Source: Bacteroidales bacterium (GTDB lineage Bacteria > Bacteroidota > Bacteroidia > Bacteroidales > F082). From it: a DNA stretch of 64,000 bases. Where the stretch lies: NCBI GenBank assembly GCA_017645245.1, contig JAGCPG010000022.1, positions 9,519 through 73,518 of the forward strand, given 5' to 3'. Under the pieces are notes generated by a model. That model was not told the DNA's origin. It saw only the letters and a list, made by a program, of their open reading frames with translations, and made no database searches. A program made the position numbers and the translations under genes. Shown in pieces: positions 53,922-61,536 of this stretch. Position 1 is the stretch's first letter. The number at the start of each line of letters is the position of its first letter.

Positions 53922-54497
53922 TTAGGGAACGAGTTGCCTCACCAACGGGACTACGGACCCTTGGATAGCCTCGCGAGTTAAGTGATGCTCACCGTGAAAG
54001 AAGCTATAGTGACGATAGTGCTGACAGAATAGGCCAAGACAATTGACCACGGTATCATTATCAGCAAATAAGCCATAAACGTTTTCACGATCAAAATCGC
54101 CAATTCCATCAAATTGTTGTTTCTCCATTTCGGCAAAATGCTGGATAATTACATCAGTTATCGTAAAGAATTGTTGGCCGTCCTTTCTAGGGTTAAAGAA
54201 CTTGAAAGTTCCAGGGTAAATCACCTTACTGTGTTCAGATAGGTTCAATGCTGGATTAACACATATCCGCTTGAAACCATGCATCTGGTGTGCATATAAC
54301 GCACCTATGCTAGTACCAACAATTATGTCAGGCTTGCCCTGCTTACACATCGATTTCAGATATAGCAACGCTTCTTTGGGATCAACGGGGATATCAAGAG
54401 AAAGTACCAGAAACTCTGGAAGGAACTCCCTCAATATCTTAACCGTTTCTGTTTGGCCAGAAGAGCCAAAGCCGTGGAAATACAAAAGCTTTTTCAT
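53922..54497 (-). CDS. YqiA/UPF0227-like alpha/beta-hydrolase (esterase)
   Basis: MKKLLYFHGFGSSG and nucleophile elbow GTSIGA. The start at an internal Met leaves a 5-nt gap to the upstream gene. Confidence 0.6.
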   Translation of the reverse strand: MKKLLYFHGFGSSGQTETVKILREFLPEFLVLSLDIPVDPKEALLYLKSMCKQGKPDIIVGTSIGALYAHQMHGFKRICVNPALNLSEHSKVIYPGTFKFFNPRKDGQQFFTITDVIIQHFAEMEKQQFDGIGDFDRENVYGLFADNDTVVNCLGLFCQHYRHYSFFHGEHHLTREAIQGSVVPLVRQLVP

Positions 54498-54502
54498 AAG
54501 CA

Positions 54503-55378
54503 TTAAAATGATTGGTGCAACACAAAGGCTTTCCCGTTCCAAATATATTTTTCGTTGAGATTTGGAAAGTAAAACGATGGTTCATCTGGATCGAAACGAA
54601 TCAGCTCATAATCATTCTCATCGAAAACATCAATGCAATAACCCACTACAATGCCTTCTTCTAATTCGTCGTTCATGAAAAGAGGCAAAGAAAAGACTCC
54701 ATGCTCATCCATTTTTAGAGCAACCAGGCCATAATAAGCCTTCCCCTCTCCTACTGAAGCTCCGTAAATTCCCCAAATGAAGGTATATGTATCTTCACCG
54801 TTCTGAATACGATACACTTTTTCAGGAAATAGGTTATACATGTCCTCGGGCATATAATCGCCATTTGCGAAATCATCATTATCCACCGTGTAAACAGTAC
54901 CATCACTCCCTTTGTATTGCACCAATAATTCAGGATTCCAATTGCTTGTTCCATCAAGATGATGCCATCCGTAACAACGCACCCGTCCATCGTCAGAATC
55001 CACCACAGTAAAGCAGGATTTATTCTGCAAAGTATCAAAGGGATAGTCCATCGAAGATGGATCCGACTGGATCACTTCCTTTAGTATTTCATAATAAGCC
55101 TCGCCATAAAGATTGCGAGACAACTCCCCGGAAAGAACGCAATGAGCTATTTTGTATTCAGCCTCCTCCATAGAGGAAAACACCATTTCTGTGGTTTTTG
55201 CCTCATTTGTAAAATAATCAGGAGTTAAAACCACCATCTTTTCCGAGAACCTTTTCTCGAATTCAGGAATGGCCTTATTAAGAGTTTCACAGTCGTAACA
55301 CGTTGTTTCTTTGTTGTTGCAACAACAAAGTGCCATTGCAGAAAAAGCAAATAACACATATATCAATGACTTTTTCAT
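54503..55378 (-). CDS. lipoprotein, unknown function
   Basis: MKKSLIYVLFAFSAMALCCC lipobox. No recognisable motif. Confidence 0.5.
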   Translation of the reverse strand: MKKSLIYVLFAFSAMALCCCNNKETTCYDCETLNKAIPEFEKRFSEKMVVLTPDYFTNEAKTTEMVFSSMEEAEYKIAHCVLSGELSRNLYGEAYYEILKEVIQSDPSSMDYPFDTLQNKSCFTVVDSDDGRVRCYGWHHLDGTSNWNPELLVQYKGSDGTVYTVDNDDFANGDYMPEDMYNLFPEKVYRIQNGEDTYTFIWGIYGASVGEGKAYYGLVALKMDEHGVFSLPLFMNDELEEGIVVGYCIDVFDENDYELIRFDPDEPSFYFPNLNEKYIWNGKAFVLHQSF

Positions 55379-55429
55379 TGTACTTCTATTATTTATGGTA
55401 TGTTTCAAAACGTCGCTTCAAATGTATTA

Positions 55430-56347
55430 TTAATTCGGCAATAATTTATGTGTATAGCTCAAGAACTGCAATGTTGGGTCAAAGTATTCCCTACTCAAAG
55501 GTCTCTGTTCAACGATCCGCTCACCTCGATACTTCTTTTTACAATCCCAAGTGGTATCCATCAAGAGCCATCTGCTTCCAATATTCACGGCGGTAATAAC
55601 ATGGTTGGAAGAGGATTGAATGGCTGTTTCAGACCACTTCCCTACGGTTGAATAACCCAATGCATAACAGCTAATTGTTTTTGCTGGGATTCCAATGGAA
55701 GTGAACATTGAGACAGCCAAATTAGAGAAGCCTGAGCAGACCCCTTTGCTGGATTCCAGCACTAAAGACGGAGTGCTGACTTTGGAATAATCAGTGTTTT
55801 CCTTTTTAAGGATTTTATCACAAGCATCAAGATCGTATCCGATGGTTTGCGAAATGAAGTCGTGGATAGCCAATGCAGCGTCATACGAAGTGGAGCAATT
55901 TCTTGTAATATTGTATGCAACCAACTCTATTACCCGAGAAGGAGCTGCGGATTTCATTTCTTTGAGCACAGGTTTCATTATCATTTGCTGAAAGCAATTG
56001 ACATTGCTGTCATAGACAGGTGACTTTTCAAAAGAAACAGTCCTTTTAGCATCAATGGAAATCGGTATTTTTCCAAACCAATAGCTATAAGGCTCAAAAG
56101 CAAAGCTGCGCTTAAAACAAGATAACGAATATCTCCCTGGTTGCACGTTATGGAGTTGAATATAGAACCGATTTCGGCATTTGTTGATGGGGCTACTATC
56201 CGACCTGTTGCCTTTACAATCAACTAGAGAGGCAATAATACTGTCATAAATGCCATCGGATGGGATGTGGTCAATACAGATGGCATCTTTTTCCACTACT
56301 ATTCTAACGTTGTGGCTGTTATTGTATGTAAGATTGAACTCGTTCAT
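55430..56347 (-). CDS. transglutaminase-like cysteine peptidase-fold protein
   Basis: Cys-His-Asp triad context: SKGVCSGFSNLAVSMFTSIGIPA ... SSNHVITAV ... LLMDTTWD. No signal peptide. Confidence 0.7.
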   Translation of the reverse strand: MNEFNLTYNNSHNVRIVVEKDAICIDHIPSDGIYDSIIASLVDCKGNRSDSSPINKCRNRFYIQLHNVQPGRYSLSCFKRSFAFEPYSYWFGKIPISIDAKRTVSFEKSPVYDSNVNCFQQMIMKPVLKEMKSAAPSRVIELVAYNITRNCSTSYDAALAIHDFISQTIGYDLDACDKILKKENTDYSKVSTPSLVLESSKGVCSGFSNLAVSMFTSIGIPAKTISCYALGYSTVGKWSETAIQSSSNHVITAVNIGSRWLLMDTTWDCKKKYRGERIVEQRPLSREYFDPTLQFLSYTHKLLPN

Positions 56348-60103: not shown

Positions 60104-60114
60104 GATGTTTGATG

Positions 60115-61344
60115 TTAAAAGTTAATAGATTGAATTGTTCTCACATCGGACTCTGTGGCCAATTCATAAGGAGGTAATGATGACACAGCCACACTGTTTT
60201 TTAGGGCATCAGCTTCAATACGATCAGATCGAAATACGGACAGTACATAAACTATAGCCTCTACTATTTTATCAAGTTCATATTTCCCCATCGAACTGGA
60301 TTCTTTGAAGGCATTTTTTTCTTTTTCAAATTTCACCAACATTTCTTGAGATTCTTTCTGGTAAACGGCATCCAGTTCTTTAATACGGCTGAGGCGAACT
60401 TTATCTTCTTTATTTTCTTTCTTTAAGTCTTCAATACCGATATTTTCAAAAGTTATTTTTTTATCGATTGAGTTGCTCTCTTGTTTTGTGTGTTTCACTT
60501 GTTCAACAGCCTGCATCTTACTAATTAACAACAGCAACACTGTTGTTATTAGCTCTATAGCACCAGGAAAACTAACTAAAAATGATTCTATGCCTCTCGA
60601 TTCACTGATCTGCCCATCGAGATATACTTGCTCCAGATCAAAACCAGATGTTGTGGTAGCCGATATGTCACCAAAAAAGTAACCAACCAAAAGACCATCA
60701 ATAATACAAATGAAGCTAAGAAACAAGGTGATATCATGAAAGACTTTGATTAGTTTTTTCCCTGTATTATAATACAAGCGAAGTTGATAAACCGAAGCCA
60801 CCCCGATTGCCAATAAAAACCCAATTCTTGTAATAACGCTCTCCAATTCCAACGTCTCTCTCTGAATCATCCATGTGGCAGCAGATACAATAGATTCAAT
60901 TACTACAACCAATAAAACATTACTCCAAAGACTTTGCTTTTTCCCATCACGCCTCTTCCCGTTTTCCTGGAATCCAACGCTACTGTTACCAAAACTTTTC
61001 AGACGGATATAAAAATCACGGTTTTTCTCTTTCTTTTGAATTTCCTTTTCACGTTGAAGAATTTTGTCCTCAAGTTCCCGTTTCTCTGCTAAATACTGTT
61101 CATGATGTTTTTTGACACCTTCATAATAAAGTTTAGCTCTTGTTTCGGTTTTAATGAGATTCGAATTTGCATCAAATATTATTTTCAACTGCTCTTTAAT
61201 TGGTTTTTCCCAATATGTAAGGATGGCTCTCTCTCCCATGCTAAAGGATCTCACTCCCGAGCTATCACGCTCAGGATAATTTGCACCGGAGTTGATGTCC
61301 ATCTCTATCAGTTCCGGATAGTTGTTGATGATTGGTGTTTCCAT
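60115..61344 (-). CDS. four-TM membrane protein flanked by coiled coils, unknown function
   Basis: 409 aa. Lys/Glu-rich heptad regions on both sides of four hydrophobic segments (LWSNVLLVVVIESIVSAATWMI ... AIELITTVLLLLIS). Confidence 0.5.
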   Translation of the reverse strand: METPIINNYPELIEMDINSGANYPERDSSGVRSFSMGERAILTYWEKPIKEQLKIIFDANSNLIKTETRAKLYYEGVKKHHEQYLAEKRELEDKILQREKEIQKKEKNRDFYIRLKSFGNSSVGFQENGKRRDGKKQSLWSNVLLVVVIESIVSAATWMIQRETLELESVITRIGFLLAIGVASVYQLRLYYNTGKKLIKVFHDITLFLSFICIIDGLLVGYFFGDISATTTSGFDLEQVYLDGQISESRGIESFLVSFPGAIELITTVLLLLISKMQAVEQVKHTKQESNSIDKKITFENIGIEDLKKENKEDKVRLSRIKELDAVYQKESQEMLVKFEKEKNAFKESSSMGKYELDKIVEAIVYVLSVFRSDRIEADALKNSVAVSSLPPYELATESDVRTIQSINF

Positions 61345-61377
61345 AATAGATTGTTGTTTGTTAGATTAGTTATTCGT

Positions 61378-61536
61378 TTAATTATTAGAGGCAATTGCCA
61401 ATTCCCAATCGCTAAATAGAGTTATCCAATCCAGCTCTCTTATTTCATCAGCCAAAGAGGATCGAACCGATTCTAAAGACCTTTTTTGATTGCAGTCTTC
61501 CATGATTTCGTCATAGTATGCGCTTGTTGGTACCAT
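61378..61536 (-). CDS. possible 52-aa leader ORF of the envelope operon
   Basis: Own translation: MVPTSAYYDEIMEDCNQKRSLESVRSSLADEIRELDWITLFSDWELAIASNN. It is below the ORF-track cutoff and ends 33 nt upstream of ATG 61344. Confidence 0.3.
   Translation of the reverse strand: MVPTSAYYDEIMEDCNQKRSLESVRSSLADEIRELDWITLFSDWELAIASNN

Follow-up and report, generated by a model that had tools for sequence, protein, structure and literature searches.

A rare, apparently mobile four-gene cassette of Bacteroidales, built around a polytopic class-A penicillin-binding protein, as a candidate envelope-spanning peptidoglycan-synthase complex

What is the function of a peptidoglycan synthase gene that lies in an AT-rich, tightly packed block of envelope genes matching no described system? 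The question is raised by positions 53922-61536 of a 64,000-nucleotide stretch of Bacteroidales DNA from contig JAGCPG010000022.1, which as a whole is called the window below. The original prediction, made from the letters alone, took the genes of this block for one envelope operon and proposed a horizontally acquired envelope-remodelling or conflict system. We find that the block is a tightly packed, co-oriented and real gene set. Comparison with related loci indicates that its unit is a core of four genes followed by exchangeable ones. The core encodes a small protein, a membrane protein with coiled coils, a lipoprotein with a vWA fold and a class-A penicillin-binding protein (PBP) with a polytopic N-terminal domain. 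We tentatively suggest that these proteins form an envelope-spanning auxiliary peptidoglycan-synthase complex, coupled to cytoplasmic modules and most likely serving in conflict at the level of the envelope; we hold this explanation to be possible rather than probable.

The block holds seven open reading frames (ORFs) on the minus strand, of 52, 409, 263, 998, 305, 291 and 191 amino acids (aa). All seven that the original prediction listed are present where it placed them; its title spoke of eight genes. The spacings in block order are 33, 11, -4, -29, 51 and 5 nt. Five of the six agree with the claim that all genes overlap or lie within 33 nt of each other, and the remaining one, before the gene of the 291-aa lipoprotein, is wider. 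The contrast in composition was described correctly, with 38.6% GC in the block and 51.5% in window positions 1-45000, and so was the truncated repeat copy that bounds the block on its 3' side. Positions of all features are collected in Table 1.

Table 1. Features of the block and its surroundings in window coordinates (TM, transmembrane; L002 is a related locus from a 95%-identical strain, and identity to it is at the nucleotide level).
Feature	Position	Strand	Basis or value
Small acidic cytoplasmic protein, 52 aa, cassette gene 1	61378-61536	-	ORF; no TM segment, no family match
4-TM membrane protein, 409 aa	60115-61344	-	Hydropathy and positive-inside rule
Periplasmic vWA-fold lipoprotein, 263 aa, lipobox ...SYGC, Cys19	59312-60103	-	AlphaFold2 and Foldseek
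Polytopic class-A PBP, whole, 998 aa, cassette gene 4	56319-59315	-	ORF, Pfam, profile searches
N-terminal polytopic domain of the PBP, about residues 1-420, about 10 TM helices	58056-59315	-	Hydropathy
GT51 glycosyltransferase domain of the PBP, residues 446-593	57537-57980	-	Pfam Transgly, 57.7 bits (cut-off 27)
Transpeptidase domain of the PBP, residues 708-925	56541-57194	-	Pfam Transpeptidase, 32.7 bits (cut-off 22.1)
Transglutaminase-fold cysteine enzyme, 305 aa, accessory	55430-56347	-	Pfam Transglut_core, 62.8 bits (cut-off 23)
Acidic lipoprotein, 291 aa from ATG, accessory gene or neighbour	54503-55378	-	ORF
YqiA/UPF0227-like alpha/beta hydrolase, 191 aa from ATG	53922-54497	-	Pfam UPF0227
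Truncated copy of a GC-rich intergenic repeat, marks the 3' end of the block	53771-53821		80% identity over 51 nt to 51188-51238
SoFic-like protein, Fic domain and C-terminal helix-turn-helix	47462-48547	+	PADLOC SoFic, E 5.9e-30; same low-GC island
Identity to L002	61.9-57.4 kb		98-100%
Identity to L002	Transpeptidase-coding part of the PBP gene		86-90%
Identity to L002	5' half of the transglutaminase gene		67-80%
Identity to L002	Gene of the 291-aa lipoprotein		93-94%

Which of these genes belong together? Comparison of gene neighbourhoods in the related loci (written L001, L002 and so on) does not uphold the assumption of a seven-gene unit: the first four genes alone are co-conserved. The core, of about 5.2 kb, runs from the small ORF through the 4-TM coiled-coil protein and the vWA-fold lipoprotein to the PBP. 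This order is found in every locus that is long enough (L001, L002, L006, L007, L008-L012, L014-L018, L019, L021 and L023), and the distal part of it is visible in those cut by contig ends (L003, L004, L013, L020 and L022). It is kept down to about 20-25% identity, as measured in the N-terminal domain of the PBP, and profile searches confirm the homology of the core genes between loci. Two other views of the block were rejected. A single co-conserved operon of seven genes is ruled out by the three distal genes, which vary between lineages. Pseudogenes or chance ORFs are ruled out by conservation in other contigs and by ratios of non-synonymous to synonymous divergence (dN/dS) of 0.06-0.26.

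The cassette is rare. With the 998-aa protein as query, 5.8 billion sequences yielded only five close relatives, and the family of the vWA-fold lipoprotein has eleven members. Cassette loci are present in 2 of 185,579 species genomes, those of the uncultured Bacteroidales isolates RUG12969 and RUG382, which are the sole named carriers and which, going by the RUG label alone, we take to be rumen-derived. Scans of JGI metagenomes and of IMG/VR viral contigs gave one locus and zero loci, respectively. An exhaustive HMMER search with a profile of the N-terminal domain of the PBP against 1.84 billion representative proteins returned 42 clusters; 29 of them have lengths of 879-1053 aa, consistent with the identical fusion architecture, and shorter ones look like fragments or split genes. 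A few matches of about 430-470 aa among these clusters might be stand-alone N-terminal domains. PHROGs, IMG/VR, and GenBank phage and plasmid sequences (the last by tblastn with the transglutaminase as query) gave no relevant match, and there is therefore no evidence of carriage by phages or plasmids. No core protein belongs to a specific family in Pfam, NCBIfam, PADLOC or PHROGs, and three of the four match no family whatsoever. In the searched literature the cassette is not described as a system, and no paper joins PBPs to TerY-P, transglutaminase or defence systems. The earlier statement that the combination is not a described system stands for these databases and this literature.

What kind of enzyme is the fourth protein? 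Both domains of a class-A PBP, with their motifs, are found in it, and the GT51 domain aligns to PBP1b of Escherichia coli. We assessed motif conservation in an alignment of 35 full-length family members. The catalytic Glu470 and Asp471 of GT51 motif 1 (EDxxF) are invariant (35/35). The acid of motif 3 is likewise kept in all 35, as Asp525 in the subclade of the window (8/35) and as Glu in the remaining 27/35. The transpeptidase motifs S741-x-x-K744, S793-x-N795 and K919-T-G921 are each kept in 34-35 of the 35. Among family members identity falls to about 20-35% in the N-terminal and transpeptidase regions and to 19-35% in the protein outside the motifs, and since the motifs are conserved despite this divergence, the PBP is probably a working, apparently active bifunctional synthase, and not a decayed or purely sensory domain. 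Its glycosyltransferase motifs have a character of their own: motif 2, canonically GGSTITQQ, reads GGSN(L/I)NxQ, and motif 3 of the window's subclade reads RKxSD.

The membrane part of the PBP sets it apart. The textbook architecture of a class-A PBP has a single anchor helix, and in place of it this protein has about ten hydrophobic helices over residues 1-420. Residues 1-430 draw no Pfam match, and the N-terminal domain has none in NCBIfam or the PDB either; among the motifs that never vary in an alignment of ten homologues are R91-G, E147-S-D149 and W285-N. Hydropathy and the positive-inside topology place the glycosyltransferase and transpeptidase module in the periplasm. We consider a ten-helix membrane domain on a class-A PBP to be an unprecedented architecture. 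The scores for the NCBIfam equivalogs all stay under their cut-offs (PBP_1c 104.5 against 494.2, PBP_1a_fam 86.4 against 508.75, PBP_1b 78.3 against 717.75); the best-scoring model is PBP_1c, with E 6e-30. The allele of the window carries a C-terminal extension of 14 residues (...NESFLTPYHHERVQSYIQ, 56319-56360), which is missing from all nine aligned relatives and gives the 29-nt overlap of the PBP gene with the start of the transglutaminase gene. It is not a sequencing error, because the identical 998-aa allele occurs in contigs L014-L016. In L011 the fusion is called as two ORFs of 309 and 678 aa (4445-7404).

The AlphaFold2 model of the core lipoprotein (pLDDT 78, pTM 0.79) was compared with the PDB by Foldseek, and the best 50 matches listed are all vWA-fold proteins, with E of 2e-5 to 1e-3 and TM-scores of just 0.3-0.45. 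The protein has no Pfam vWA match. Its metal-ion-dependent adhesion site (MIDAS) motif is degenerate, reading D39-C-T41-D-P in the window and DCT(D/E) in relatives as against DxSxS...T...D for an intact site; D165 of its 'DG' strand is kept. Homologues stand directly upstream of the PBP in all loci (profile search, E 1e-37 to 1e-144), and the two genes overlap by 4 nt in the window and in L001 and lie 2-5 nt apart in the other variants examined. We also considered that this lipoprotein is a secreted duplicate of TerY; hhalign against TerY proteins gives it a probability of 9%, and the idea was rejected.

The 409-aa membrane protein has charged coiled-coil regions at its N-terminus (1-138) and C-terminus (281-409). 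A profile of its family detects homologues upstream of the PBP in L001, L008 and L021, and it has no relative in Pfam, PADLOC or the PDB. In L018 (7913-9222) and L019 (2885-4152) it is encoded by two half-genes with two TM helices each, and the junction of the half-genes in L019 carries a masked stretch. The 52-aa protein has a homologue at the same position of L001 (41% identity, E 1e-9), and an ORF of 49-84 aa fills the first position in every related locus of sufficient length. Neither the coiled-coil protein nor the small protein has detectable relatives beyond the cassette. PDB sequence searches with the lipoprotein, the N-terminal domain of the PBP, the coiled-coil protein and the transglutaminase returned noise alone. 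In the predicted topology the glycosyltransferase and transpeptidase domains and the vWA-fold lipoprotein are periplasmic, while both coiled-coil regions, the small protein, the transglutaminase and the esterase are cytoplasmic. The domain calls of the original prediction were borne out, by Pfam matches, by hydropathy topology and, for the vWA-like lipoprotein, by AlphaFold2 and Foldseek; for the YqiA-like esterase the Pfam match extends over the first half of the model.

What follows the PBP on its 3' side depends on the lineage. In variant A (the window, L002 and L014-L016) it is the transglutaminase and the 291-aa lipoprotein, to which contigs of greater length add the esterase. Variant B (L001, L006, L007 and L023) has a 202-203 aa protein followed by a short BrxL. 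The BrxL of L001 matches TIGR02688 with 408.7 bits (cut-off 329.3) and PADLOC BrxL with 557 bits; at its position L006, L007 and L023 have a BrxL-domain protein or an ORF of the same size. L004 has a ClpX-like ATPase gene, and in L003 no gene of the same strand follows the PBP. Variant E (L008-L012), 39-42% identical to the window, has the order TerY-like vWA protein, small ORF, 4-TM protein, vWA lipoprotein, PBP, TerY-like vWA protein, PP2C, Ser/Thr kinase and transglutaminase, with PADLOC E-values of 1e-43 for TerY, 2.5e-20 for PP2C and 7e-54 for STK_OB.

Among the accessory proteins of the window the transglutaminase is the one that recurs. It belongs to the transglutaminase-like superfamily by its Transglut_core domain and Cys-His-Asp triad (Cys204, His249 and Asp264, all kept in the L008 homologue), and has neither a signal peptide nor a TM segment. 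Outside the lineage of the window it is found in one other lineage only, namely in L008, where a homologue with 38% identity closes the operon of variant E. The 291-aa lipoprotein has no family match in Pfam, PADLOC, NCBIfam or PHROGs and is seen in the window's own lineage alone, and the YqiA-like esterase only in L014-type contigs. The esterase scores 33.8 bits for UPF0227 (cut-off 21), covering only positions 1-96 of the 187 in the model, and 32 against 252 for the NCBIfam YqiA equivalog; its GxSxG motif is G-T-S63-I-G, with Ser63. A Bacteroidetes -7-like motif, TAnnTTTG, lies at 55419-55426 within the 51-nt gap upstream of the 291-aa lipoprotein gene, and the genes of this lipoprotein and of the esterase may have a promoter-like motif of their own. 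We regard both as lineage-specific passengers, and the esterase is probably outside the system. Compared with the window copy of 291 aa, behind which the esterase gene starts after 5 nt, the accessory lipoprotein of L002 (6824-7858) is at least 54 residues longer at its C-terminus. This suggests that the 3' end of the block was rearranged recently.

How has the locus moved? Compared with L002, synonymous divergence rises along the locus from about 0.03 through 0.35 to saturation, with dN/dS of 0.06-0.26 for all genes compared. For the transglutaminase dS is saturated at dN/dS 0.06, and its allele was swapped by recombination. The pattern is one of allelic exchange under purifying selection. 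Within window positions 57400-55300 the comparison with L002 shows sharp recombination breakpoints, in the PBP gene at about residue 640 and around that of the transglutaminase; here dS goes from 0.03 to above 1. P0020/L023 is a mosaic as well: its N-terminal and glycosyltransferase parts come from another lineage, its transpeptidase domain shares 74% identity with the A-D clade, and after it come the same 203-aa protein and a BrxL 92% identical to that of L001. In L001, L006 and L007 the cassette opens an AT-rich island (0.39-0.40 GC) beside a proS-side flank of 0.52-0.54 GC. Judged by its sequence, the cassette is rare and horizontally mobile, and composition, extreme rarity and mosaic recombination support the predicted horizontal acquisition.

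What would such a cassette do? We suggest the following. In the periplasm, the PBP would be a working peptidoglycan synthase, served by the vWA-fold lipoprotein as a dedicated partner or activator in the way that LpoA serves PBP1A and LpoB serves PBP1B in E. coli. In the membrane, the polytopic domain and the coiled-coil protein, together with the small protein, would couple the periplasmic enzyme to cytoplasmic modules. The module here would be the transglutaminase-fold enzyme, and in other lineages the triad of TerY, PP2C and kinase with the transglutaminase, the short BrxL ATPase or the ClpX-like ATPase. Upon attack on the wall, by phage entry or lysis or by wall-degrading effectors, the complex would reinforce or re-seal the peptidoglycan, and it would be controlled by the cytoplasmic partner or report to it.

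This arrangement resembles the PBP1A-LpoA and PBP1B-LpoB pairs of E. coli in the bifunctional GT51 and transpeptidase enzyme with all catalytic motifs and in the adjacent, overlapping lipoprotein gene. It differs in the anchor, a domain of about 420 residues and ten TM helices instead of one helix, and in the encoding of the pair together on a mobile island with two further conserved genes; its PBP is also far under the cut-offs of the 1a, 1b and 1c equivalogs.

The link to conflict comes from the genes around the core. In L008-L011 the cassette lies between two TerY-like vWA genes, followed by PP2C, Ser/Thr kinase and transglutaminase homologue. A layout with a cassette flanked by duplicated TerY genes was described for CoCoNuT extensions (Bell et al. 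2024, PMC11090510), and TerY-P is a predicted phosphorylation switch whose OB-fold form is a validated stand-alone anti-phage system (summarised in PMC11090510). Variant E is similar to the CoCoNuT-type layout, with PP2C and kinase after the second TerY-like gene; however, its insert is a peptidoglycan synthase module and not an ATPase of the FtsK, SpoVK or VirB4 type, and no McrBC or CoCoNuT genes are found. The triad itself is absent from the block of the window, which has no TerY, PP2C or kinase, while all three stand in the L008 operon. Variant B is similar to BREX in encoding a full-length TIGR02688-type BrxL two genes past the PBP, but the examined stretches of its loci have no PglX, PglZ or BrxC, and the window has no BrxL. 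The island of the window also holds the SoFic-like gene, a mad2-like methyltransferase (weak PADLOC match) and KptA. By domains and motifs we class the cassette as an atypical class-A PBP complex, and not as a TerY-P, BREX or PADLOC system.

A bolder form of the conflict reading is that the four genes are the core of an unrecognised envelope-based immune system with a peptidoglycan synthase as its working part. In such a system the PBP and the vWA-fold lipoprotein would sense or answer a breach of the wall by a phage or a competitor's effector, local rebuilding or over-cross-linking of peptidoglycan would block DNA entry or lysis, and the coiled-coil protein would relay the event to interchangeable modules, namely the transglutaminase-fold enzyme, the TerY-P kinase switch, BrxL or the ClpX-like ATPase. 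We consider this unlikely.

Several points weigh against an auxiliary synthase complex with a conflict function. An Lpo-like role is assigned to the lipoprotein by analogy; its vWA fold is neither that of LpoA nor that of LpoB, and its MIDAS is degenerate. The AlphaFold2 model of the full-length PBP (6 sequences) has a pLDDT of 36.8 and is unusable for the fold of the ten-helix domain. PADLOC v2.0.0 gave zero matches for the seven proteins of the window and for the PBP of L008, and L018, L019 and L021 have no recognisable defence gene beside the cassette. The BrxL genes of L001 and L023 cannot be counted as independent support, since the 3' block was inherited by recombination together with the part that encodes the transpeptidase. 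There are gaps of 147 nt between the PBP and the ClpX-like gene in L004 and of 126 nt between the PBP and the internal TerY in L008, so the 3' genes could be separate transcription units. A conflict or defence role, drawn from the TerY nesting, BrxL and the island context, is the leading hypothesis, and it is one of association. The original prediction of a conflict system has gained circumstantial support from the nested TerY-P triad, BrxL and the SoFic-like gene, and this support is guilt by association.

The alternative that survives best is an acquired synthase that gives tolerance to wall-targeting chemicals or enzymes, has no role in phage defence and has defence genes as coincidental neighbours. 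Its targets could be beta-lactams, moenomycin-type GT51 inhibitors, lysozyme or the amidase and muramidase effectors of competitors, in the manner of mecA PBP2a or PBP1C. PBP1C (pbpC, paired with the alpha-2-macroglobulin gene yfhM) is an accessory, non-essential class-A PBP of sporadic occurrence; its gene adjoins that of a periplasmic lipoprotein, and its presumed role is to protect or repair an envelope under attack. The PBP of the cassette would resemble it in these traits. Intact catalytic motifs in a highly divergent sequence (GT51 motif 2, the RKxSD motif 3), the horizontal acquisition and rarity of a cassette whose named carriers are RUG isolates of uncultured Bacteroidales, and PBP_1c as the top NCBIfam model all fit this alternative. 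However, 104.5 bits against a cut-off of 494.2 mean that the PBP is not an orthologue of PBP1C, no alpha-2-macroglobulin gene accompanies it, and the polytopic N-terminal domain and the two cytoplasm-facing partners have no counterpart there. Tolerance alone accounts neither for the constant co-inheritance of three more proteins, two of them largely cytoplasmic, nor for the TerY-P triad within one variant's operon, and the moenomycin idea is speculative. We rate this alternative as rather unlikely.

The cassette could also be an ordinary accessory module of morphogenesis or wall growth, a synthase with its scaffold, in a few Bacteroidales; the transglutaminase, lipoprotein and esterase would then be unrelated to it and the block would consist of at least two units. 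Co-conservation limited to four genes, 3' gene sets that differ by lineage, the promoter-like motif before the 291-aa lipoprotein gene and several distant loci free of defence neighbours speak for this view. Rarity and patchiness, AT-richness relative to the hosts and allele exchange are atypical of housekeeping morphogenesis genes. A functional link to the core is moreover argued by the transglutaminase, which between the window and variant E has diverged about as much as the core (38% as against 39-42% identity), and by the 4 nt that separate its gene from the preceding kinase gene in L008. An ordinary growth module is in our view improbable.

Might the PBP be a sensor? A PBP-type domain joined to a multi-pass membrane domain is the design of BlaR1 and MecR1, and the cassette shares with them the penicillin-binding-type periplasmic domain, the multi-pass membrane domain, the cytoplasmic partners and the mobile DNA. 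In this reading the polytopic domain and the coiled-coil protein would transmit the signal of acylation or substrate binding in the periplasm and so activate an effector in the cytoplasm, be it TerY-P, BrxL, the ClpX-like ATPase or the transglutaminase-fold protease; abortive infection or growth arrest would result. The topology, with a sensor in the periplasm and partners in the cytoplasm, and the protease-fold or AAA+ nature of the variable partners agree with this. BlaR1, however, has four TM helices, a cytoplasmic zinc-protease loop and a class-D beta-lactamase-like sensor, and lacks a glycosyltransferase. The PBP of the cassette has a complete, conserved synthase of GT51 and transpeptidase domains, and its membrane part shows no detectable protease motif and no recognisable cytoplasmic enzymatic domain. 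A GT51 domain with its catalytic Glu and motif-3 acid conserved in 35 of 35 members would be needless in a pure sensor, which makes this alternative quite unlikely.

Finally, self-resistance to a peptide natural product of the adjacent radical S-adenosylmethionine (SAM)/SPASM cluster is very improbable: variants A and B do have the maturases, small ORFs, methyltransferase and KptA next to the cassette, with KptA 81% identical between the two, but the cluster beside the cassette has no identified precursor peptide or transporter and is absent beside L008, L018, L019 and L021, so its adjacency is island-level synteny within one clade.

A conserved subfamily of ten-helix PBPs that moves horizontally, always with genes of three dedicated partners, would be a new organisation of peptidoglycan synthesis, in a class of enzymes that is among the best studied in bacteria. 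If the link to TerY-P, BrxL and defence islands is functional, this would be the first cell-wall synthase recruited into a conflict system and would give a handle on the role of TerY-flanked cassettes, which the CoCoNuT study left open. If the cassette is an acquired synthase insensitive to drugs or effectors, it would be relevant to resistance in gut and rumen Bacteroidales.

The surroundings of the block deserve a short description. Genes for KptA/Tpt1 RNA 2'-phosphotransferase and a SAM methyltransferase occupy window positions 62585-63812 on the minus strand and run past the window end. The same set stands beside radical-SAM/SPASM maturases and ORFs of 46-66 aa in L014 (5164-7519), L001 (12112-17767) and L006 (9590-13249), and in variants A and B it adjoins the cassette in differing order and orientation. 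The set resembles a separate cluster for peptide modification or conflict. Directly 3' of the block (52708-53630) there are two convergent genes of small HAD/NT5C-type nucleotidase-like proteins (158 and 149 aa), and an NT5C gene is also found in the island by the variant-B cassette of L007 (17554-18075). The SoFic-like gene adjoins a gene for a CoiA_N-domain protein (45998-47434) and one for a TM1586-type nitroreductase.

Just downstream of tRNA-Ser and tRNA-Pro (41568-41770), at what seems to be the start of the variable region, two tandem DUF6266 paralogues (43145-43816 and 43971-44639, minus strand) share a direct repeat of 231 nt with 71% identity; no integrase is seen. The GC-rich intergenic repeat family comprises two adjoining segments of about 60 nt, present 5.3 kb apart at 46079-46199 and 51398-51519 with 83-97% identity, and the separate 51-nt segment at 51188-51238 whose truncated copy ends the block. 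These segments could serve as recombination or regulatory elements within the island. A scan for sigma-70 promoters and terminators, with a consensus inappropriate for Bacteroidota, gave counts similar to those in shuffled sequence.

On the 5' side of the block the original prediction took what it saw for decayed gene fragments. The roughly 1 kb between the cassette and KptA (61.6-62.6 kb) holds only short ORFs, of at most 87 aa and with no family match. Positions 61600-62580 are nevertheless 92-97% conserved with L002, and an opposite-strand ORF of 66-87 aa (61799-62008 on the plus strand of the window), which is also called in L002, L014 and L016, could be a small, divergently transcribed gene.

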